From Escherichia coli (GTDB taxonomy: Bacteria > Pseudomonadota > Gammaproteobacteria > Enterobacterales > Enterobacteriaceae): 64,000 bases of DNA. The stretch lies in the NCBI RefSeq assembly GCF_017348835.2, contig NZ_CP072315.1; one strand, written 5' to 3'. Numbering within the stretch: the stretch's first letter is position 1; each line of letters begins with the position of its first letter. The translations under genes and the position numbers were made by a program. Shown in pieces: positions 9,657 to 64,000 of this stretch. The notes beneath the pieces are model-generated. The model saw only the letters and a program-made list of their open reading frames with translations. It made no database searches and was not told the DNA's origin.

Positions 9657-11669
9657 ATGAAATTAGATCTTAAATCATCACCGCGCCATATTAAGCGTTT
9701 ACAGAATATAGCAAAAGTCATTAGCGGCTTAGGCGATGTAAGAGTTGTAATAGACGACAATACCAAAGGACCGTATTTTGATCCTGTAAATAAAGTTTGT
9801 GTTTTACCAAACGGCGATTATAGCGATGATGACTTTGTCAGTCTGATTGAAGGTTTTACCTGTCATGAAGCTGGTCATGGTCGCTATACCGACAGCGAGG
9901 TTTACAGTGACGCCTTTAATAGTGTTCTCAAGTCATCTGAAGGGTTTACACGCTTCGATGACGGAATGAATGCAGAGTTTGAGAGCCTCGCTGAGAAACG
10001 TAAAGCTTATAGCAGGGCAAAACGTCTTACCGGGCTTATAAATCTGTTCGATGATGTACAGATGGAAGAGAAGGTTGGTAACGATTATCCGGATGCAAAG
10101 CGGCGGCTTGCAGCCACTTACGCACTGATGGTTAAAGCCGGAAGGATGACTCCTGATATATCTTCTCGTCCGGAAAATCCTGTCCTATTTATTGAGTGGT
10201 ATCTGCTTAACTCATTGCGAGTAAAAGTCCTTCAGCAGGCAGGTCACAAAGAAACACTCGATCCGTTTTTTGACTATGCCCAAAAGATACTTTCTCCAGT
10301 AATTTCTGATGTTGAGGAAATTTTTCATGATGCTCTTGGTTGTGAAAATACTCAGGGCTGTGAATCCCTTGCTCGTAAGACCCTGGCTCTTTTAGAGAGA
10401 CTGCGGGATGAGGCAAGGGAACAACAGCAGCAGACAGAGCAGGAGGAGCAGGAGGCATATGATGAATCCGAGACCGATACCGATACCGATACCGAATCAG
10501 AAGATAAATCGCTTGAGTCGACTGATAGTCGTGAGGATGATTCTGAGGACGATAGTGAAGGTCAGGCAGATACTTCCGATAACTCTGATCTTGCTCAAGA
10601 GGGATGTTCTGAGCCTTCAGAACTTGCTGAAGATAACGAGGGAAATAATGAACCCACCGGTGGCAATCCCACAGGTGATAACATTATTGAAGACGATACT
10701 GATGCGATTAACCCTTCCGAGAGTGAATCAGATGAAGCCAGTTCGACTAACGTTGAAGATGAAAGTAACTTTTCATCGGCTCAATGGGAGATACTGGCAG
10801 ATTTGTTGGATGCCTTTCTTGGCAGTGATGAGGATAGCGAAGATTATCACGATGCTTTGGCTAAAGAGATTGAAGGTATTGCATCAAAAGTATCCGATGA
10901 CGTGAAAGCCGAATTCGGTGCTTCTGAATGGGATATCCCTGATCTCCTTATCGATTTGAATGTTTACAATGAGGCTTTGTCTCTGAGTCATTCAATCGGT
11001 AGCGACTTGTCTGTTTTACAGCAGGTTAAAATGCGTGGCCGAAACAAAACTCATGAGCGTGGAATTACCTTCGATGGAAATCGATTAATTCTGTCACCAA
11101 TGGGAGTTCGTGATGTCTTCAGAGCTCAAAGCGAATCTAAAAATAGAGGGCATGTTGGCCTCGTATTAGTTCGTGATATTTCAGCGTCAATGGCTAATGA
11201 TGAAAGATATATTCATGCCATTAAGTCAGATCTTGCTTTATCGATGGCCGCTGAAAGTTTGTCAAAAATGCATGTCTCCAATATAGTCTTTCCCTTCAAG
11301 GAAAGTGAATTTGAGATTATCAAAACGTTTGATCAAAGCGTTGAGGAATCTCTATCGAAATTCACTCTTGGATGTAAGGGTTATTATACCCCTACGGGAT
11401 CGGCTTTAATGGCAGCTGTTGATCTGTTACTTGACAGCCAATTCGATAGGAAAATAATTTTTCTTATAACTGATGGTTATCCGAATAAATCGGAATTTAC
11501 TATCGGCGAAGTTATGGAAAAGGCTAAATGTAATGGAATAGAAATCGTTGGTGTTGGTATTAAGACTGATGAAATAATTGGTTTTGAAACGGACACTTTC
11601 GTAACAGTTGATGATACTTCTTTATTGTCTATTGAAGTCAGTAAGCTAGTTCATCAAATACTTTCTTAA
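9657..11669 (+). CDS. vWA-domain protein, CobT-like, with acidic linker and N-terminal HExxH motif
   Basis: C-terminal vWA with MIDAS DISAS and ITDG; central highly acidic D/E/S/T-rich segment; HEAGH at residues 70-74. Architecture resembles CobT, the usual partner of CobS-like ATPases. Confidence 0.7.
   Translation: MKLDLKSSPRHIKRLQNIAKVISGLGDVRVVIDDNTKGPYFDPVNKVCVLPNGDYSDDDFVSLIEGFTCHEAGHGRYTDSEVYSDAFNSVLKSSEGFTRFDDGMNAEFESLAEKRKAYSRAKRLTGLINLFDDVQMEEKVGNDYPDAKRRLAATYALMVKAGRMTPDISSRPENPVLFIEWYLLNSLRVKVLQQAGHKETLDPFFDYAQKILSPVISDVEEIFHDALGCENTQGCESLARKTLALLERLRDEAREQQQQTEQEEQEAYDESETDTDTDTESEDKSLESTDSREDDSEDDSEGQADTSDNSDLAQEGCSEPSELAEDNEGNNEPTGGNPTGDNIIEDDTDAINPSESESDEASSTNVEDESNFSSAQWEILADLLDAFLGSDEDSEDYHDALAKEIEGIASKVSDDVKAEFGASEWDIPDLLIDLNVYNEALSLSHSIGSDLSVLQQVKMRGRNKTHERGITFDGNRLILSPMGVRDVFRAQSESKNRGHVGLVLVRDISASMANDERYIHAIKSDLALSMAAESLSKMHVSNIVFPFKESEFEIIKTFDQSVEESLSKFTLGCKGYYTPTGSALMAAVDLLLDSQFDRKIIFLITDGYPNKSEFTIGEVMEKAKCNGIEIVGVGIKTDEIIGFETDTFVTVDDTSLLSIEVSKLVHQILS
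10473..10493 (+). repeat. In-frame hexanucleotide tandem repeat (ACCGAT) x3.5 encoding TDTDTDT
   Basis: accgataccgataccgatacc read directly in the acidic linker of the vWA gene. Confidence 0.6.
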
Positions 11670-11685
11670 TAAACTCTACCCAATC

Positions 11686-11712
11686 GGGGCAAAAGGCCCC
11701 GGTGGGTCTTTT
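11686..11712 (+). terminator. Intergenic hairpin + U-tract
   Basis: GGGGC-aaaag-GCCCC then GGTGGGTCTTTTT, downstream of the 11669 stop. Confidence 0.5.
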
Positions 11713-11740
11713 TGCTCCATGAAGGAATAAGGAGCAAAAT

Positions 11741-11962
11741 ATGACTCAGATAAAAACTTACCGTGTAGAACATGAAAAAGTCGGTGCGATGCATAAAGTC
11801 CGTATTTTCGGACGTGTTGGTGAAGTTATAAGCAATGATAGCCCTCAGGAAAGAATCTTCCGCGAAGTCACTATAGCGGAGGGTAATAGCCAGCAGGCTG
11901 CGTTACTTGTAGATAACTACATACAGTGTCTTGAGAATAATGGCTTCACGACTGAAGCATAA
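11741..11962 (+). CDS. Hypothetical small protein (73 aa)
   Basis: ORF with AAGGAG-like RBS (aataaggagcaaaatATG) and its own downstream terminator. Confidence 0.45.
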   Translation: MTQIKTYRVEHEKVGAMHKVRIFGRVGEVISNDSPQERIFREVTIAEGNSQQAALLVDNYIQCLENNGFTTEA

Positions 11963-11967
11963 ATGTT

Positions 11968-11991
11968 GAGGGCCCCCGGGCCCTCTTTCTT
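11968..11991 (+). terminator. Intrinsic terminator
   Basis: GAGGGCCC-cc-GGGCCCTC perfect stem followed by TTTCTT. Confidence 0.55.
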
Positions 11992-12075
11992 AAATTCTGC
12001 GTTGTGGGTTTCTCCCTGTCTTCTGCACCGCAGAAGGCATTGAGAAACTCACAATGCCAGATAAGAGAGATCATC

Positions 12076-55960: not shown

Positions 55961-56791
55961 ATGGAGTGTAAAATGACTCAAAACCAGGGTTCTGAGCCAG
56001 TACCGGCGAGCCGGACAGGGCAGCTCATCAGCGCCCGGGATATGGCCATGCAGAAATTCGAAGAAGGGATGCGGTTAATCTCGGAAGCGTCGGAACTGTG
56101 CGGTCTCTCTCTCTTCACCAGCAGAATTATGCAGCCCAACGCATTTGGTCTTCCGTCGTCACTGGATCGCACCATCGAGGAGGGGCGTAAGGAAATTGAC
56201 CGTAAAACGTGGAAAAGGCTCTTTGAAGAAACAGGTATGGACCGGTACTGGAACCATAAGCAAAAAGAAGCCTTTAACGAATCCCTTCGTACGGATCCGC
56301 CCGTCGCTTCCCTGGAGATTGTTAAGGGAACATTACAGCATGCACTGGCTAACAGACGAGACACCCTTGCAGAAGGTTTCGTTGATGTTCTCAACAAGCT
56401 TGACCGAAGTTTCAAAAGCAATGCCAGGCAATATACAATGCCAAAAAAGCTTGTTCTTCGGGGGATTTTTCCTGGTGTGAACGTGCTGAGGTACAACGGT
56501 TTCTCGCAGGACAATCACTTTTGTTTACGCGACTTTGAGAATATTGTATGCATCTGTTCTGATACTCCAACACCTGCAACCGGCGGTGGGCTGAGTATGG
56601 TCGACAGGCTGACGGCCATGAGAAATACAGAATTCACAGGCGAGGTCAGTGATGAGAATGGCTGGCGGTGTCGCCTGTTTGAGAATGGAAACGTTCATAT
56701 TTGCATCGACAGTATCTCGCTTCTGAATGCTCTGAACGATCTTATCAGCATATATTTTGCAAACCAGCTTCCGGCCGCAGGAAAAAAATGA
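55961..56791 (+). CDS. Hypothetical protein (276 aa)
   Basis: ORF whose stop overlaps the start of the next gene (ATGA); no motif recognised. Confidence 0.5.
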   Translation: MECKMTQNQGSEPVPASRTGQLISARDMAMQKFEEGMRLISEASELCGLSLFTSRIMQPNAFGLPSSLDRTIEEGRKEIDRKTWKRLFEETGMDRYWNHKQKEAFNESLRTDPPVASLEIVKGTLQHALANRRDTLAEGFVDVLNKLDRSFKSNARQYTMPKKLVLRGIFPGVNVLRYNGFSQDNHFCLRDFENIVCICSDTPTPATGGGLSMVDRLTAMRNTEFTGEVSDENGWRCRLFENGNVHICIDSISLLNALNDLISIYFANQLPAAGKK

Positions 56792-57993
56792 TGATTGAAA
56801 ATGATAAAGAAAAAAGCCTGAACGATGCTACCCCGCCAGAGGTGCAGAATGACATCCGCAGCGAATCCACTGAAAAATCAAAGGAAATGGGTCGTTCAAG
56901 GTACTCATCTATCGCGATGATCGATTACTTCAATGCAATCGAACGTCTGTGCAAAGAGAAAGAAATTAACCCGGAAAATATCGATCTGAGCTTCAAAGTT
57001 CACTGGCTCAGAAACGCTGTTGGCGGCTCGTTTGCAAGGTCACAGGAGATGTTCGCGGAGTACCAGAAGTATGTTAAAGAGGTTCCTGAAGAGGCCCGTT
57101 ACCTGGATATACCCGATGAGGTAAAGGTTGCACTCGGCGATATTATCTCGTACATCACCTGGCACTACCGTAGAAGCTATACCGCAATACAGAATGATAG
57201 TGTTAAAAAAGCTGAAGCACGTAGCATGCAGCTGGAGGAGGAGGTAACGCAGCTGTTACAGCGGCTTGAGCAAAGCGCTACCGATATGGATGAGCTGAAA
57301 CTTGAGAATCAGGCACTACAGGGTCGATTAGAGATCCGGGACAGTACCGTCAAGGAGTTAGAAACAAGGCTGAATGTTGCCGAAGCAGAACTCGAAACCT
57401 GCCATCACCAGTTAGATAGCACACGGCATGAATTGAGCCTCGCACAGCAGTCAAATGACTCACTCTCCCAGCAACTGGCTGAACGTAAAACAGAGATCGC
57501 TGGTCACCTTGAATATCAAAAAAAGCTGAACGAAGAGATCAACACGCAGCGTTCTGATAACGCCGGTCTTTCCAGACAATGCGACCAGTTAAGTCAGACT
57601 GTGTCAGATACAAAGGCAGAGAGGGACAGGTTTGAACAGGAATTGATTGCTGCACAGAACCTTTGTACTGAGCTGAAAAGTGCACTGTCCGGGAAAGAGG
57701 GTGACCTGGTGGCGGTGAATGCCGAGCTTACTGAACTCCATAAACTAAACGAGTCGCTGAGCGCCGACCTGAATAAAGTAACTTTGGTCAGCCAGGGCTA
57801 TGAAGCGGAAGTGGCTGAACAAAGCAATGAACTCAAAACGCTCCAGGCCAAAGTAATGAAGCTGGAAGCTACCCTGGAGGCGGAGAAAACAATCTCAGAA
57901 TCCCTAAAAGGCACCATTGATACATTAACTGGTGCAATGGCAGGGGGAGGTACTGGAAAGTCAAAACAGCCGCGTAGCAGAAAAACATCATGA
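56788..57993 (+). CDS. Coiled-coil protein, KfrA-like (tentative)
   Basis: N-terminal globular region followed by ~250 aa of heptad-like Q/E/L-rich sequence and a basic tail (GKSKQPRSRKTS); resemblance to KfrA is architectural only. Confidence 0.4.
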   Translation: MMIENDKEKSLNDATPPEVQNDIRSESTEKSKEMGRSRYSSIAMIDYFNAIERLCKEKEINPENIDLSFKVHWLRNAVGGSFARSQEMFAEYQKYVKEVPEEARYLDIPDEVKVALGDIISYITWHYRRSYTAIQNDSVKKAEARSMQLEEEVTQLLQRLEQSATDMDELKLENQALQGRLEIRDSTVKELETRLNVAEAELETCHHQLDSTRHELSLAQQSNDSLSQQLAERKTEIAGHLEYQKKLNEEINTQRSDNAGLSRQCDQLSQTVSDTKAERDRFEQELIAAQNLCTELKSALSGKEGDLVAVNAELTELHKLNESLSADLNKVTLVSQGYEAEVAEQSNELKTLQAKVMKLEATLEAEKTISESLKGTIDTLTGAMAGGGTGKSKQPRSRKTS

Positions 57994-58056
57994 TAAATGA
58001 AGCCAGGTTGATACACTTCTCTGCATCCCCTGGCACATAAGAACTTCTGCGGACAT

Positions 58057-58260
58057 TCAGCCCGTCCGCAGGAGTTTTCGTCCTTCAGTCAACAAATGCA
58101 CTACCTTTTTTGAGTCTCCACTTTCCAGAGCAGAAAACACGTTACCGATTCTACCAACAGCTTGTATCTGAGTGATAACCCCAGTCTTGTAATCATCTAG
58201 GATCCCTGACAGGAAAGCGTTCAGTTTTGTCTGTTCGCTTAGCGAAAGCATGTAGGACAT
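58057..58260 (-). CDS. Hypothetical small protein (67 aa)
   Basis: ORF only. Confidence 0.3.
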   Translation of the reverse strand: MSYMLSLSEQTKLNAFLSGILDDYKTGVITQIQAVGRIGNVFSALESGDSKKVVHLLTEGRKLLRTG

Positions 58261-58272
58261 TTTTTCTCCATT

Positions 58273-59592
58273 TTAAGCAGGTGTGTCAGTTGAAAGAGGT
58301 TTGCGTGATTCTGGAAAATGAGGCAGCACCATAGTTTCAGATGCTGTGGTCGCATCCCAGTGCCACCATCCATAAGGCCCATATTCACGGTTGTAATAAT
58401 CTTTTTTGAGTTGCTTTCGGGCCAGATAAGCAGGAGTGGCCATACCAAATACTTCCATCGGGAACGGCTTATCGCTTTTTGTGTCGAGCAGGTAGAAGTC
58501 AGGGAACACCTCACTAATACTCGCATCATAACGCATGGGCTTAACGTACTGCCGGTGCTCTGCATCCAGCTTTTCTGCAACAACCGCCTCATAGGAGGAG
58601 TCCAGAGGTATCCAGTTCTCGCTAACGTGCATCAGCACAATTTGATGAGCTCTTACAGAAGGGCCTCTGCCGGTTACCACAGCTGGTGACGTCAACGCAA
58701 AGACAACTATTTTCGCCCCGGATTTCCATGCTGCGTACTCCGATGAAAATCGTTTCTTTACGCTATCCCAATGGACTTCTGAATTGAAAAAAATCAGCGG
58801 TAGCCCCCCAAAATTCCGCAGGGGTAAAAATTTAAGTGGCTTCTCATGCTTTTCAGCATCGTAGCGAGGTAAAACTGACAGGAGCATGAGACGTTTATCA
58901 CTCATCGCCTGTGATGAAAGACGCTGAATTTGCGACTGAGCGACAGGTTGTTTCGGGTCAGGTACACCAATGAATAAATGGTCACCTATGCAGGCTCTGC
59001 CGGTACGAATTTGTTTAGCGGTTTCAAGCAGACGATACCGTACCAGTGAATCGTTACGTTTCCCTGCCATTTTCGGGTACCAGACATTCAGACCAGACTC
59101 TGTCCACAAAAGACTAAGCAAGCCCAGGAGGGTCATTGAGGCCTGACCTCCTTCTGGTCGCTGAACATGGGGCAGGGGAGGCACTTCTGATTTTTCAGGA
59201 GGATCTTTCTCTGTCATACCGATACCGAGCCTTACAGCCATATCACCTTCGGTTGTAATCCGGACCACACCACTCGCATATCCTTTCAGGCCGGTATGCC
59301 GGGCATCAAGGGAGAAGAATACACAGGAAGGATCATGCTCAATGCCCGTGTTAGCGGCTTTGACGAGAATAAAGGCATCACCGTTCGGTAAAGCACGAAC
59401 ATAAAGTCGCTTTTCTCCTTTTCCACGACATCCGCAGGTGATGACTGATTTTTGACCTGAGGTGTGGTGTGCCTTTTTAAGAGCCGACTGCCACCCTTTA
59501 GCAAACTCATCCTGCGTTTGAAAGTCAGGTGAATACCTTTTGACGTTTGGATCGTCGTCGTAAGCAATCATCACTGCGAATTTTTGGCTCAT
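58273..59592 (-). CDS. Hypothetical protein (439 aa), downstream of dcm on the same strand
   Basis: Large ORF with good start context; no catalytic motif recognised. Confidence 0.5.
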   Translation of the reverse strand: MSQKFAVMIAYDDDPNVKRYSPDFQTQDEFAKGWQSALKKAHHTSGQKSVITCGCRGKGEKRLYVRALPNGDAFILVKAANTGIEHDPSCVFFSLDARHTGLKGYASGVVRITTEGDMAVRLGIGMTEKDPPEKSEVPPLPHVQRPEGGQASMTLLGLLSLLWTESGLNVWYPKMAGKRNDSLVRYRLLETAKQIRTGRACIGDHLFIGVPDPKQPVAQSQIQRLSSQAMSDKRLMLLSVLPRYDAEKHEKPLKFLPLRNFGGLPLIFFNSEVHWDSVKKRFSSEYAAWKSGAKIVVFALTSPAVVTGRGPSVRAHQIVLMHVSENWIPLDSSYEAVVAEKLDAEHRQYVKPMRYDASISEVFPDFYLLDTKSDKPFPMEVFGMATPAYLARKQLKKDYYNREYGPYGWWHWDATTASETMVLPHFPESRKPLSTDTPA

Positions 59593-59614
59593 AGTAGTCT
59601 CCTAAACAGGAAGT

Positions 59615-59782
59615 TTAATATCCCAACCAGAGCAACACTTCCTGAGCGTCATACTGTTCCTTTACGCCCATGTCGCTAAAGAATTCTTCGAAATCTGTTT
59701 CGGGAACGCAATGCCTGGACAGTTCTTGTAATGCTCGTTCTTTAGATACCGTCTCACCTTCAGCTGATTCGAAATACGTCAT
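59615..59782 (-). CDS. Possible small acidic protein (55 aa) between dcm and the 439-aa gene
   Basis: Translation MTYFESAEGETVSKERALQELSRHCVPETDFEEFFSDMGVKEQYDAQEVLLWLGY; acidic; not in the track (<60 aa). Confidence 0.3.
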   Translation of the reverse strand: MTYFESAEGETVSKERALQELSRHCVPETDFEEFFSDMGVKEQYDAQEVLLWLGY

Positions 59783-59842
59783 GGTTGACCTCTGACATTA
59801 TTACAACAATCTTAAGCATTTAAATTGATGAAGGAGCTCAGG

Positions 59843-61312
59843 TCAGCTGACTTCGTCGTAAAACTGCCGCAAGCGCTGGGAGGCTGCAAATTCAATTCGT
59901 GACTTCAGCAGTTTGGCGACGGCCGCAAAGACATCAACGACCACGGAGTTCCCAAACTGTCTGTAAGCCTGTGTATTGGACACAGGGATACGGAAAACAC
60001 TTTCCCCGGGTTTATCGAAGCCCATTAGCCTGCTGCATTCACGTGGCGTTAGCATGCGTGGCCGACGGTCCATGTTGTATGTGTTATGGAAATCAGTTTC
60101 TCCCAGTTCATGAGACCAGCCCCGATCAATAAGAATTTCAGATCCGTCTTTCATATAGCGGCTTGAGAGGGTTCTGGTGACACTATTAACATTGGAAGGA
60201 TCTACTAGTCCAAAACCAAAACCATTGCCTTTTGCCGCATGTTTCTTTGCATAGTTGTATAAGTACTCCCAGAGTTTAGGGGAGAGGATGTATTTACTAT
60301 CTACGCTCGGATCCAGTAAATCTGAGAGAGAAGGGCGCTTGTCCGGATAAAAGTCTTTAATGTCTCTCAGAGTAAAACCGTCTTTCAGACGTAGGTCGCG
60401 GCGAAAACCAATAAGGACGATACGTTCACGGTGCTGGGGTCGGAAATGACGGCCATCGATGACTTTAGGATCATCCGCGCCCGTGCTTTCGCTGTTTGCG
60501 ACGTCGTAGCCAAGCTCATCGAGCGTTTTCATGATGATGTTAAAGGTATTACCCTTATCGTGACTCTTCAGATTTTTTACGTTTTCCAGAACAAAAATTG
60601 CAGGTTGTTTTGCCCGGATGATCCTGGCCACATCAAAGAAGAGCGTACCCTGAGTGTCGCACTCGAAACCGTGTTTGCGACCCATAGAGTTCTTTTTACT
60701 GACACCGGCGATGCTGAATGGCTGGCATGGAAATCCCGCAAGAAGAACATCATGATCCGGGATAGAGGCATCGATAAATTTGTATGCCTCGTCATCAGTA
60801 ACCTCGGGCCGGTTGCTAAGAGTGATGTCACGGATGTCTGAATTGAAGCGGTGCTCGTTCTCATCGCAATACCAGTTCGCCCGGTAAGTACGGCTGGAAT
60901 AAGTATTCCATTCGCTCGTGAAAAGACATTTACCACCGATGGCATCAAATCCGCTTCGCAGTCCACCTATCCCTGCAAACAGATCGATAAAGCTAAAGTG
61001 CCTGTCCTCATAATCAGCAGGTCGTGAAGGTATTAAAGTCTGTAGATAGCGTCCATCTGCGATACTCAGCTCACAATGCTCAGGTATGCATGTAACCTGA
61101 CGTTTAAGGGATGCACGGGACCAATTACTGCCATTTTCATCATTTAATACCTGAGCCAGATATTTCAGGTCATAAATGGTCGAAGCTGTTAACAAAGTTT
61201 TGTGGATCAGAGATGGTGTTTTATCCACATCATTCAGGTCTGTCTCAAGATCATGAGTGTAACGTTTCATCCAAACTCTCTCAGGAATAATATCTTTGAG
61301 ATAGATTAACAC
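59843..61312 (-). CDS. dcm: DNA cytosine-5 methyltransferase, Dcm orthologue
   Basis: Motif [11 protein letters not shown], motif [10 protein letters not shown], motif VI ENVKNL; long stretches near-identical to E. coli Dcm (recalled) including C-terminal RLMGF...QFGNSVVV. Confidence 0.9.
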
Positions 61313-61481
61313 GCTTAATTTGGATTATTTTTTGGTTCAGGTTCTAAATTTATTGTGATTATTCTGCCTTTAAGTTGCAAAAAGATTGGTTTTAAGCCCG
61401 CCCATGAAATAATGACTTGTTAAAATACTGCCTGTAAATAGGCTTGTGGATACATGTCTGTACTCAACAAATCAAGGTGAA

Positions 61482-62000
61482 ATGATGTTTTTTTTAACAA
61501 AGTTACTTTTGCCCATCATGATTGTTGTATTCCCAGTGGCGTCCTGGGGGAACTCAACAACTTTTGAGGCAAAGGTGGTTAAGATTGTTGACGGTGACAC
61601 CATAACTGCGTTGGATGCTCAAAACACAACCATCAAAATACGGATGTATGGTATAGACGCTCCTGAATCTAAACAGGCTTTTGGCCAAAAAGCAAAACAG
61701 GCCTTAACCACAGCTATAGCAACTAAAATCGTTACCGTGATAGACCATGGTACGGATATCTATGGCCGTATGTTAGGTACCATCTGGTTAGATGGATATG
61801 ATATCAATGCCTCTATGGTGGACAGTGGATATGCGTGGGTTTATCGGTTCGAAGATAACGCCATTGTCCCTGGCTATATCAAATATGAATCCGCAGCACA
61901 AAAGGAGGCAAAAGGGTTATGGGCAGACACCAACCCTGTCCCACCATGGCAGTGGAGACAGGCAAACGAAAAGCCCAGAAAGGTGAAAGAGAAGAAATAA
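61482..62000 (+). CDS. Secreted thermonuclease (SNase-like) homologue
   Basis: Signal peptide MMFFLTKLLLPIMIVVFPVASWG; SNase core VDGDTI...RMYGIDAPE. ATG at 61482 with AAGGTGA RBS; track start 61446 is GTG. Confidence 0.75.
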   Translation: MMFFLTKLLLPIMIVVFPVASWGNSTTFEAKVVKIVDGDTITALDAQNTTIKIRMYGIDAPESKQAFGQKAKQALTTAIATKIVTVIDHGTDIYGRMLGTIWLDGYDINASMVDSGYAWVYRFEDNAIVPGYIKYESAAQKEAKGLWADTNPVPPWQWRQANEKPRKVKEKK

Positions 62001-62002
62001 CC

Positions 62003-62899
62003 ATGATGAAAGAGCCTCATCCGTTACTTCAGTTGGTACTAAACGATTCCGGTCGTCTAACCATGCCTGTTTATTATAGAGATCAACAGTATTGCCCGAC
62101 TTGCCTTACAAAGGTGTTGAAGAGTGAGGATGGAAGTTTGGCGCACCTCGGGGAAATAAATCAAAATACATGTAGACCTTCTATTTCAGTAGTTGTGACA
62201 AAAGCAATTATTGAAATGTTATGTGACGGGGAAAAAATATATGTAAATCCAATACGACACCGAGGCCGGGTGCTGGCACCCTCAGTAATTTTTTCTCCCG
62301 ACACTCACACTTTCAAACCGTTTATAAATACAGACTATCAGCCTGTGGGAGCAAACTGGAAAAGTGAAAAGGGATATAAACTCGGTCTGTTTTATCTCAA
62401 AGATCGAGCCAACTCTATCAATAAAGAGGAATTTGATTTCATTGCCGTTATAGACCCTGAGGCAATGCAGAAAGAATTTATTTCGGCCTGGTCTGAGGTT
62501 GATGAAAAAAATCCATTGGAAACGCTGAAGCAGATCTTACGATCTAAAAACAACTCTTCTTTATGGGTAAAATGGCCTGGCAAAATTGAGCATGCGCAAA
62601 AAGGAAATTACAACGAAAATTACTGGTTCGATTATCAATCTGATAATCAGGAAGTGAACTGTACGGTCTCTGTTGTAGGTATCGAAGGTAACAGTTCCGG
62701 TGAGACAATTTATAGATTGCAAACTTTGCTAAAGCGTAAGCTCAATGAATATCAACTGGTTCGGTCTTTAGGGACTATTATGCTTCTTGATAATACCGGG
62801 AATATGATTCCATCAAACCATCCTTATTTTGAAGTCATCTCAAAAGCATGTATAAATGGAGTGCGTGACTTTGTTCGTCAAAACCCGTGGGTAGTCTGA
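62003..62899 (+). CDS. Hypothetical protein (298 aa)
   Basis: ATG 62003 immediately after the nuclease stop; no motif recognised. Confidence 0.5.
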   Translation: MMKEPHPLLQLVLNDSGRLTMPVYYRDQQYCPTCLTKVLKSEDGSLAHLGEINQNTCRPSISVVVTKAIIEMLCDGEKIYVNPIRHRGRVLAPSVIFSPDTHTFKPFINTDYQPVGANWKSEKGYKLGLFYLKDRANSINKEEFDFIAVIDPEAMQKEFISAWSEVDEKNPLETLKQILRSKNNSSLWVKWPGKIEHAQKGNYNENYWFDYQSDNQEVNCTVSVVGIEGNSSGETIYRLQTLLKRKLNEYQLVRSLGTIMLLDNTGNMIPSNHPYFEVISKACINGVRDFVRQNPWVV

Positions 62900-62946
62900 C
62901 GGTCAACTATAAAGCATAATATAATTAGTAATAACAAGGAACAGAC

Positions 62947-63354
62947 ATGAATGAAAACTCAGTAATCTTAATAAGTTTATTTTGGTTTTTTTTGGGATCG
63001 AGTGTTGTAGCTGGTTTTATGGATGCATCATTATATTGCTGGATTTTTGCAGCCATAAGCGCATTGTTTCTTCTTTCGGTGATACAAACACCAAAGGAGT
63101 TAACGGTATCTATTAGTCATATGACAAGCAAAACGCTGATCTCAAAGACAGATGATGGATACACATTTAGCATTTCACCTTACGGAGACGGGTACCGCTT
63201 ATCAGTCTCGCCTGAAAATCGTCACAATGGTACCCAAAGCTTTGACGGCTGGTTCCCACGTTTTTTTTCCGAACCACAGTATGCCAAATCATCTTTAACT
63301 AAATTTCTCGGTGAGTCCTTAGTATGGGAAGAAGATTCAAGTAATGCTCTATGA
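62947..63354 (+). CDS. Hypothetical membrane protein (135 aa)
   Basis: Two N-terminal hydrophobic helices. Confidence 0.45.
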   Translation: MNENSVILISLFWFFLGSSVVAGFMDASLYCWIFAAISALFLLSVIQTPKELTVSISHMTSKTLISKTDDGYTFSISPYGDGYRLSVSPENRHNGTQSFDGWFPRFFSEPQYAKSSLTKFLGESLVWEEDSSNAL

Positions 63355-63399
63355 GATTACTTATTATAAATTTTTCTATTAATCTCCATGGAGTGATAT

Positions 63400-63654
63400 A
63401 TGAATTTGGCCTATTTTTTATTTTTGTCTATAACTGTTATGCTTACGAGCTTTATTATTAAATCACTTGTCGTATTGGTAAAGTTCAAATTACTTCGTGA
63501 TGAACGTCTCGAATATACCAGCAATAAAAATATTGATGAGATGTACGATTTAATGAATGCGAAGGAAGAAATCCTCATAAGGCATCATAAGCAGATGTTG
63601 GCATTGCATCTTTCACTATTAATATTCGTTCTATTTATTGCTTACATTTACTAA
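63400..63654 (+). CDS. Small membrane protein (84 aa)
   Basis: Hydrophobic N- and C-terminal helices. Confidence 0.4.
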   Translation: MNLAYFLFLSITVMLTSFIIKSLVVLVKFKLLRDERLEYTSNKNIDEMYDLMNAKEEILIRHHKQMLALHLSLLIFVLFIAYIY

Positions 63655-63691
63655 AAATAATTTTATTCAACATTTCAACAAAGGGTTTTCA

Positions 63692-63979
63692 ATGGAAAGC
63701 TTCGAAACTGAACAAATGATTCAATATGCTTTCTACATAAATATCGTAATAACGACTGGTTTGGCATGGTTTTGCTTGCGGTCAGGATTGCATTACAATT
63801 TTTTCAGAAAAGCAGAGAGTGCCAGAACAAAAGGGCTGAGTAGTACCTCTACTGAACACGGTCCAGCAATAGTGAGACTAAAGAAGCTACAAGCATTAGT
63901 AGATTTTATTAGTAACTGTGCTTTTCTAATCCTTTCAATTGGCACAGCTTATATTTTGTATGTTTGGAGCCACAGTTAA
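63692..63979 (+). CDS. Small membrane protein (95 aa)
   Basis: ATG 63692 with AAGGG RBS; the track's upstream extension overlaps the previous gene. Confidence 0.4.
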   Translation: MESFETEQMIQYAFYINIVITTGLAWFCLRSGLHYNFFRKAESARTKGLSSTSTEHGPAIVRLKKLQALVDFISNCAFLILSIGTAYILYVWSHS

Positions 63980-64000
63980 CTCATACGAGGTAACTTCGGC

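Follow-up and report, generated by a model that had tools for sequence, protein, structure and literature searches.

Does the orphan gene that follows a thermonuclease gene on large resistance plasmids act on that nuclease, or does it have business of its own? IncHI2 plasmids rank among the chief vehicles of mcr, ESBL and other resistance genes, and for a large share of their backbone no function has been assigned. We analysed a 64,000-nucleotide (nt) stretch of an Escherichia coli contig (NZ_CP072315.1; the window), in which a staphylococcal-nuclease-like (SNase) gene is followed by a gene for a 298-amino-acid (aa) protein, here called the partner, and by a run of small genes. Our literature searches found no study, experimental or otherwise, of this IncHI2 nuclease gene or its partner, and none on what SNase-type nucleases do for plasmids. 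We favour, with a probability of about 0.6, a reading in which the block is conserved IncHI2 backbone made up of an exported SNase, a coupled cytoplasmic partner with its own role and separate small genes. The outcome is a clarifying one: the nuclease looks intact and exported from its sequence, and the suggestion of the initial annotation that the partner might be an inhibitor or specificity factor found no support in the distribution of the two genes, the size and composition of the partner, the compartment it is predicted to occupy or a fused structural model.

A DNA identity search placed the DNA of the block, at 99% identity or more, in 1,133 sequenced plasmids, and the reference plasmid record is typed as IncHI2A, MOBH and MPF_F. 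The block is conserved backbone of IncHI2 conjugative resistance plasmids, ordinary and already annotated. It has the ter/HipA region on one side and the resistance island on the other, with Tra2 far away, and on these grounds a leading-region or anti-defence placement was set aside. Between 57000 and 64000 no Rfam family matched and a repeat scan returned no meaningful repeats. All of the open reading frames (ORFs) that had been described are present where they had been placed. They are not chance ORFs, because dN/dS is 0.13–0.33 for each gene of the block; all block genes are under purifying selection.

The SNase gene (61485–62000, plus strand) encodes 171 aa. A start at 61482 would give 172 aa; an AAGGTG Shine–Dalgarno sequence at 61474–61479 favours the ATG at 61485, which is also the RefSeq start. 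The protein matches Pfam PF00565 over model positions 1–107 of 107 (E = 3.9e-24; score 85.6 bits, cutoff 21), which bears out its description as a thermonuclease homologue, and thermonucleases in the PDB align with it at E values of about 1e-10. The catalytic and Ca2+-binding residues are D38, R53, D58, A59, E61 and R95 in the 171-aa numbering; their Staphylococcus aureus counterparts are the Ca2+ ligands Asp21, Asp40 and the backbone of Thr41, and the catalytic Arg35, Glu43 and Arg87. The Arg and Glu residues on which catalysis depends (R53, E61 and R95) are thus present on alignment, and the equivalents of S. aureus D21, R35, D40, E43, R87, Y85 and Y113 are invariant in 11 SNase orthologues, with a dN/dS of 0.13–0.16 for the gene. 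In an AlphaFold2 model the SNase part (pLDDT ~90) runs through three strands, a helix, two strands and three further helices, an order that agrees with an OB-fold barrel plus three helices. Judged from the sequence, the active site is intact and an export signal is present. The gene is a further member of the known staphylococcal-type nuclease family, already annotated in RefSeq as 'thermonuclease family protein'. Scores for the NCBIfam equivalogs EcnA (NF047969; 68.2 against a cutoff of 180) and NucI (NF047694; 49 against 250) fell short, and in PADLOC the protein's match (E = 3e-11) is confined to the SNase component of the candidate 'SNc+LTD' model.

Export is predicted from residues 1–20/22 (61485–61550), where a positively charged n-region and a hydrophobic core lead to a site between MFFLTKLLLPIMIVVFPVASWG and N with small residues at −3 and −1. 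Hydropathy finds a single hydrophobic segment in the protein, at residues 1–22, and the signal-peptide pattern, with A-x-A-type sites, is kept in 11/11 SNase orthologues. The signal peptide and signal peptidase I site were judged by rule and by conservation, and as a rule-based prediction the signal-peptide claim stands. The pre-nuclease would be exported by the Sec pathway and then cut by signal peptidase I, and the mature product would be a small basic SNase-fold enzyme. Its activity, location and substrate we infer: given Ca2+, it would cut DNA and RNA non-specifically, whether in the periplasm or extracellularly.

The protein resembles S. aureus Nuc in its full-length domain match, identical Ca2+ ligands and catalytic Arg/Glu/Arg, strand and helix order, N-terminal export signal and basic character. 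It differs in showing modest identity only (best PDB E about 1e-10), in the absence of the loop formed by S. aureus residues 44–49, in an Ala in place of Thr41 (although the ligand there is the backbone carbonyl) and in an extra Trp-rich basic tail (PVPPWQWRQ...); moreover, it is plasmid-borne in Enterobacteriaceae and known here from sequence. Parallels are also found among plasmids. SNase-type nucleases occur on at least 7% of sequenced plasmids, and exported SNase homologues are also backbone genes of IncC plasmids, of a Klebsiella MOBH IncFIB plasmid and, as ParB, of IncP plasmids. ParB of RK2/RP4 is reportedly a Ca2+-dependent SNase-like nuclease. The IncHI2 locus is not a parCBA-type operon, because its SNase gene adjoins no resolvase or parC-like gene; its neighbours are instead dcm, a DUF1173 gene and the 298-aa orphan gene. 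An SNase match on a Variovorax plasmid was rejected as a parCBA member since it does not lie in a parCBA context.

Upstream, an AT-rich intergenic region (61313–61484; GC 0.37) separates the SNase gene from a divergent DNA cytosine-5 methyltransferase gene, dcm (59843–61270, minus strand; Pfam DNA_methylase, E = 3.8e-75). This region presumably holds the promoters of both genes. A promoter scan marked a promoter-like site on the minus strand at 61438–61409, and no consensus plus-strand promoter upstream of SNase passed it. The best PADLOC match of the dcm product, which is 475 aa long from the RefSeq start, is to an orphan methyltransferase model (E = 3.4e-206). Of the 10 lineages that include upstream sequence, 9 retain the divergent layout, and we treat dcm as conserved context of the SNase gene. 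Next come a 55-aa ORF (59615–59782) and, beside it, a gene for a 439-aa DUF1173 protein (58273–59592, minus strand; E = 5.7e-39), whose position is unchanged in IncHI1 and other relatives. The DUF1173 gene is a neighbour that the Klebsiella MOBH plasmid has in common with IncHI2, and there it directly adjoins the SNase gene.

Downstream, the partner gene (62003–62899, plus strand; start backed by homologue N-termini) begins 2 nt past the SNase stop codon. In orthologues the junction is an ATGA or GTGA overlap of 4–8 nt or a gap of 5–17 nt, which upholds the proposed translational coupling, and no terminator-like site was found in 61200–64000. An SNase gene lies directly upstream of the partner in 11/11 lineages, down to ~22–25% partner identity; one lineage (L009) keeps the pair despite different neighbouring genes. 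Because this adjacency is conserved throughout, it argues for co-expression. The two genes are probably co-transcribed and translationally coupled, in which case both proteins would be made together. Pairwise identities of SNase and partner track each other (r = 0.94), with the partner diverging faster, a correlation that shows only that the two genes are inherited jointly. The nuclease does not always come with the partner. More than 5,000 PLSDB plasmids carry an SNase (76% of them conjugative), against 1,555 that carry the partner, and related SNases on other MOBH plasmids do without it: the Klebsiella copy, at ~50% identity, is followed by an H-NS gene, and the IncC copies, at ~38% identity, by an HU gene. 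The partner is therefore not an inhibitor that accompanies the nuclease everywhere.

What kind of protein is the partner? Its N-terminus bears a C-x2-C...H...C motif (C31, C34, H48, C57), the Cys ligands of which have been lost in two family members, and two further domains follow that have no recognisable fold. Hydropathy found no signal peptide or transmembrane (TM) segment, so the protein is predicted to stay cytoplasmic and would occupy a compartment other than that of the mature nuclease. As a single sequence or a profile it gave no usable match to Pfam, NCBIfam, PADLOC, PHROGs or PDB sequences, and Foldseek against BFVD returned nothing at E ≤ 0.001. A model of the partner alone reached a pTM of 0.65 in AlphaFold. 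A PD-(D/E)xK nuclease was considered and rejected because there is neither a conserved triad nor a fold match. An HMM run exhaustively against 1.84 billion representatives recovered 25 proteins only, and extension from a remote homologue (P0049) found 5 proteins only; the orphan family of the partner is small, and its members are confined to MOBH-type plasmids. Remote homologues with the same architecture and the same N-terminal motif sit by parAB or elsewhere, without an SNase. Most likely, the partner is a zinc-ribbon-bearing, nucleic-acid-related MOBH backbone protein with its own role, the zinc-ribbon reading being drawn from the Cys/His pattern and from sub-threshold Pfam matches.

The arrangement nevertheless recalls barnase–barstar, Anabaena NucA–NuiA and the colicin DNase–Im pairs, in which the gene of a secreted nuclease is likewise followed at once by a coupled gene for a protein without an export signal. 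By this analogy the partner would bind the pre-nuclease in the cytoplasm before Sec and shield plasmid and host DNA, as a dedicated immunity protein or export chaperone. We consider this unlikely. Unbroken adjacency, overlapping or closely spaced reading frames and the correlated identities with a faster-diverging partner all suit it, and, having no export signal, the partner could meet the unexported nuclease only. However, the known inhibitors of such pairs are small and acidic, whereas the IncHI2 partner is a large protein of three domains that is not acidic (pI 5.5–8.7 across orthologues); it is absent beside related SNases and occurs elsewhere without one; and the correlation speaks to joint inheritance and no more. 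SNase also requires far more Ca2+ than the cytoplasm contains, so immunity to it would generally be unnecessary. A linker-fused AlphaFold2 model of SNase and partner, built with an artificial linker and 11 paired rows and scored by pTM only, gave 0.44, as two independent domains would be expected to; it predicts no confident complex and weakly suggests that none forms. The partner is thus probably neither an obligatory inhibitor nor a specificity subunit of the nuclease. Even so, persistent coupled adjacency is what one would expect of cooperating proteins, and treating the partner as independent may undervalue a real link. If the pair does work together, it would offer an inexpensive genetic entry point to the way in which large resistance plasmids treat periplasmic or extracellular DNA.

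One form that such cooperation could take is DNA handling in two compartments, as in competence, with the exported nuclease nicking or degrading DNA outside the inner membrane and a CoiA-like zinc-ribbon partner processing intracellular DNA in the course of transfer or establishment. The N-terminal C-x2-C...H...C pattern is common to the partner and CoiA-type proteins, the coupling to SNase is conserved, and there are weak profile matches to DUF7828 (E = 1.6e-4), DUF7830 (E = 3e-3) and CoiA_N (E = 0.08–0.2), which come from remote family members and one close member. All of these matches, however, lie under the curated Pfam cutoffs, the nuclease and C-terminal domains of CoiA are unmatched, the central and C-terminal domains of the partner have no recognisable fold and the two members that lack the Cys ligands do not fit, which makes this analogy, inferred throughout, improbable. 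Taken together, the proposal that the SNase and the zinc-ribbon protein form a true two-component module restricted to IncHI-type plasmids, whether as a nuclease with a new cytoplasmic immunity protein or as a nuclease with a CoiA-like partner, is in our view rather unlikely; were it true, the partner would have a previously unseen fold and, in the CoiA-like version, would work at the inner face of the membrane. The divergent methyltransferase gene raises a further idea, namely that Dcm, SNase and partner form a restriction–modification-like or exclusion system in which the methyltransferase marks self and the partner, with or without SNase, attacks unmarked incoming DNA. IncHI2 and IncHI1 both keep the layout, as do several more distant lineages, and restriction enzymes often lack relatives that can be detected by sequence, which is also true of the partner. 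Yet the methyltransferase fits an orphan model best, and the SNase cannot reach cytoplasmic DNA because of its export signal. A type II system would always include its cognate methyltransferase, whereas L009 has the SNase–partner pair with none nearby and the remote partner homologues have none adjacent. Since the pair also occurs where there is no methyltransferase, we rejected this reading as very improbable. The preferred reading therefore remains that of an exported nuclease and a coupled cytoplasmic protein with its own role.

The genes that follow appear to be separate, shuffled and lineage-variable, and to encode mostly small membrane proteins and one 77-aa soluble protein, as judged by homology, shuffled order and a deletion junction. 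A promoter-like site matching at 10/12 positions lies ahead of them at 62896–62925, and neither they nor the partner gene has a PADLOC match. The initial annotation had counted three small membrane proteins here. TM segments are indeed predicted in all three, but the first ORF is a deletion chimera and the last more probably begins at another start codon. The chimeric ORF (62947–63354, plus strand; 135 aa), preceded by an AAGGA Shine–Dalgarno sequence, has two TM segments by hydropathy. Its codons 1–56 (62947–63114) belong to a 104-aa membrane-protein gene, of which they form the 2-TM N-terminus. A 530-bp deletion, whose junction lies at 63114/63115, has joined them in frame to a complete 77-aa conserved soluble gene (63121–63354). 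Blastn against pEC-IMP shows that the window lacks positions 2716–3245 of L015, and the sequences at the junction agree. Free-standing homologues of 75–77 aa occur at 96% identity in L017, 62% in IncHI1 and 56% in L006, and databases record both the 77-aa and the 135-aa forms. In this plasmid lineage, then, a deletion fused one small membrane gene to the 77-aa gene.

The last of the small genes most likely starts at ATG 63692, behind an AAGGG Shine–Dalgarno sequence and in line with the pEC-IMP annotation, and not at TTG 63638, from which the earlier 113-aa version began. From this ATG it extends to 63979 on the plus strand and encodes 95 aa; hydropathy shows a strong TM segment near the C-terminus and a weaker hydrophobic stretch near the N-terminus. 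Its homologue in L017 shares 54% identity and that in IncHI1 35% (E = 1e-15), and dN/dS is 0.17–0.23. Between it and the chimera lies a gene for an 84-aa small membrane protein (63400–63654, plus strand), with a GGAG Shine–Dalgarno sequence and a dN/dS of 0.24. Two TM segments, at residues 1–29 and 63–84, are predicted by hydropathy to flank a charged middle, and the protein has a counterpart of 94% identity in L017 as well as a weak homologue in L007 (E = 3e-7). In pEC-IMP the same gene is annotated from an internal Met, as 71 aa.

The gene that opens this region of the plasmid (+ strand) starts at position 61482 or 61485 and ends with a TAA stop at 62000; an AAGGTG Shine–Dalgarno sequence at 61474–61479 suits 61485 better, and this is also the RefSeq start. 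Its 171-aa product is an SNase family member on every feature testable here. It matches the full Pfam SNase model (E = 3.9e-24; 85.6 bits against a cutoff of 21) and PDB thermonuclease structures at about 1e-10, and the SNase part of an AlphaFold2 model (pLDDT about 90) has the strand and helix order of SNase. We aligned the protein with Staphylococcus aureus nuclease A and ten orthologues and found the Ca2+ ligands Asp21 and Asp40, the catalytic residues Arg35, Glu43 and Arg87, and Tyr85 and Tyr113 (S. aureus numbering) to be invariant; their equivalents here are D38, D58, R53, E61, R95, Y93 and Y120, respectively. The catalytic Arg/Glu residues, the absence of which the initial annotation had named as grounds for rejecting a nuclease, are thus all present and the active site is intact. 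The Thr41 position is Ala in our protein; the Thr41 Ca2+ ligand is a backbone carbonyl. The signal peptide noted earlier is also borne out by rule-based inspection: each of the 11 proteins begins with an n-region containing Lys, followed by a hydrophobic core and a site of the A-x-A type, and hydropathy places the only hydrophobic segment at residues 1–22. The gene has a dN/dS of 0.13–0.16. Because the protein scores below the NCBIfam cutoffs for the EcnA and NucI equivalogs, we regard it as a family member that is neither named enzyme.

The tight coupling proposed between the nuclease and a 298-aa protein held in a survey of gene neighbourhoods in eleven family lineages, in which partner identity to our protein ranges from 81% down to 22–25%. 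The partner gene (62003–62899, +) begins directly after the nuclease stop, at a start backed by the conserved N-termini of its homologues, and an SNase gene lies immediately upstream of it in every lineage, with a 4–8-nt overlap in five and a 2–17-nt gap in six. One relative (L009) retains the pair with dcm and the DUF1173 gene gone, and no terminator-like site lies between the two genes. Together, these observations make co-expression of nuclease and partner well supported. Pairwise identity in one protein is correlated with that in the other (r = 0.94), with faster divergence in the partner; this correlation shows joint inheritance only.

The partner represents a small orphan family travelling with the nuclease. 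Single-sequence and profile searches of Pfam, NCBIfam, PADLOC, PHROGs and PDB sequences returned no match. The family is very small: 5.8 billion proteins yielded only 34 clusters, and a set of 1.84 billion yielded 25 representatives. By tblastn it occurs in 1,555 plasmids, with IncHI2 copies at least 95% identical, IncHI1 copies about 52% and a few remote ones about 25%. Hydropathy revealed no hydrophobic segment, so the protein is predicted to be cytoplasmic, and its dN/dS is 0.19–0.24. The family alignment contains conserved motifs including YQPxGAxWKSxKG, NKxxFDFIAVIDP, GETIYxLQ and LLLDNTGN, and an N-terminal-proximal C-x2-C...H...C pattern that is lost in two members. Remote members give sub-threshold matches to Pfam models related to CoiA_N (DUF7828, E = 1.6e-4; DUF7830, E = 3e-3; CoiA_N, E = 0.08), as does one close member (CoiA_N, E = 0.2), a weak lead that suggests a zinc-ribbon N-domain and nothing further. 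In this IncHI2 lineage the partner ends in ...NPWVV (stop at 62897–62899); most homologues extend 8–20 residues further at the C-terminus, ending for example in ...NPWVVGQTTIKT in the database protein P0002. Rare database proteins of 191–193 aa (P0033 and P0034) join an SNase domain to about the last 50 residues of the partner and look like deletion fusions with most of the partner gene removed.

It had been proposed that the partner is an inhibitor or specificity factor of the nuclease, a role that our data do not support. More than 5,000 plasmids carry SNase homologues, and some of these lack the partner: a Klebsiella MOBH plasmid SNase (about 50% identity) adjoins DUF1173 and has H-NS after it, and an IncC SNase (about 38% identity) is followed by HU. 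Conversely, distant homologues of the partner are encoded at sites that lack an SNase: one adjoins parAB on a Klebsiella plasmid of 358 kb, and others are carried by an IncT plasmid and a metagenomic contig. In the Klebsiella type, the C-x2-C...H...C N-terminus is preserved. Known nuclease inhibitors are far smaller than the partner, which, with a pI of 5.5–8.7, is not acidic. As a crude test, we modelled mature SNase fused through a linker to the partner, from an alignment of 11 paired rows to which unpaired rows for the partner were added. Each half was individually confident and the pTM was 0.44, the value expected without fixed packing, which would argue weakly against a complex. Two readings based on known systems were also rejected. 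The locus has no resolvase operon, which IncP-type parCBA has, and the nuclease is therefore not a parCBA-type ParB; a restriction–modification-like unit of dcm, SNase and partner fails because the pair occurs without the methyltransferase. PADLOC placed the nuclease in no catalogued defence system. In the Klebsiella MOBH plasmids that carry it, the remote partner homologue (336–344 aa; P0049 and P0058; locus L012, 4749–5759) lies just downstream of parA–parB, beside genes for large Ig-like proteins and with no SNase nearby.

A promoter-like site (62896–62925; 10 of 12 matches) precedes three ORFs that follow the partner on the same strand, each with a recognisable Shine–Dalgarno sequence. Their positions stand as initially called, except that the last (95 aa, to 63979) plausibly starts at ATG 63692, as in the pEC-IMP annotation, and not at TTG 63638. 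All three had been described as small membrane proteins, which is the prediction for the 84-aa (63400–63654) and 95-aa products, with homologues in relatives L017 and L007 and in IncHI1. The 135-aa ORF (62947–63354) is a chimera: relative to pEC-IMP-type IncHI2 plasmids, 530 bp are absent at junction 63114|63115, so that a 104-aa membrane-protein gene breaks off after codon 56 and continues in frame into an entire 77-aa gene. The deletion (pEC-IMP locus L015, 2716–3245) takes out the 3′ part of the 104-aa gene and a complete 85-aa gene, so that a two-TM N-terminus is fused to a soluble protein in which no TM segment was found. Among 40 evenly spaced matching plasmids, 22 carry the deleted form and 16 the longer one, and both the 77-aa and 135-aa forms are common in databases; the 77-aa gene is free-standing in L017 (96% identity), IncHI1 (62%) and L006 (56%). 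All the small genes are under purifying selection (dN/dS 0.17–0.33). Their order and content vary between lineages, and synonymous divergence between 61485–63979 and L017 (5486–9029) spans a 25-fold range across adjacent genes: it is lowest in the 77-aa and 84-aa genes (0.08–0.11), intermediate in SNase (0.29) and the partner (0.57), and highest in the 95-aa gene (2.0). This pattern points to gene-by-gene recombination that has made the run a patchwork, and nothing supports a functional tie of the small genes to the nuclease.

The nuclease region is an ordinary part of the IncHI2 backbone that has been sequenced many times and already carries annotation; RefSeq names the nuclease a thermonuclease family protein and the following genes hypothetical. 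The final 6 kb of the window match 1,211 plasmid records (1,133 at 99% identity or more), mainly from Escherichia, Salmonella and Enterobacter, of which 1,036 are predicted to be conjugative. A reference with 100% identity, pAMSH1, is of IncHI2A type; its relaxase is MOBH and its mating-pair genes are MPF_F. Tra2 genes (trhN and trhI) are followed by a tellurite-resistance cluster, a HipA toxin–antitoxin pair, an HNH endonuclease, DUF4942, DUF1173 and the nuclease region, with a resistance island directly past the window end. In IncHI1, IncHI2 and more distant elements, the SNase–partner pair is accompanied by a conserved block (about 56000–61312) comprising DUF4942 and a 401-aa coiled-coil protein (9974–11994 in locus L001), a 67-aa ORF (58057–58260), DUF1173 (58273–59592, −), a 55-aa ORF (59615–59782) and an orphan-type Dcm methyltransferase (59843–61270, −).

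In the IncHI1 plasmid p724-MDR, a 259-aa phospholipase-D-family gene (L014, 6980–7759) lies directly 3′ of the partner. The same Dcm–thermonuclease–PLD block has been described within a resistance insert in the chromosome of monophasic S. Typhimurium ST34, for which the capture of plasmid fragments in resistance islands is on record (PMC10151351); where the IncHI1 version is found on a chromosome, this reflects such capture. In relatives, a cargo hotspot follows the conserved module on its downstream side, holding a Thoeris system (ThsB TIR and ThsA Macro; L002/L005, 8235–9691), a type VI secretion cluster (L006, 8640–12942) or an 810-aa Ig-like (Big_3) protein (L019, 5976–8408).
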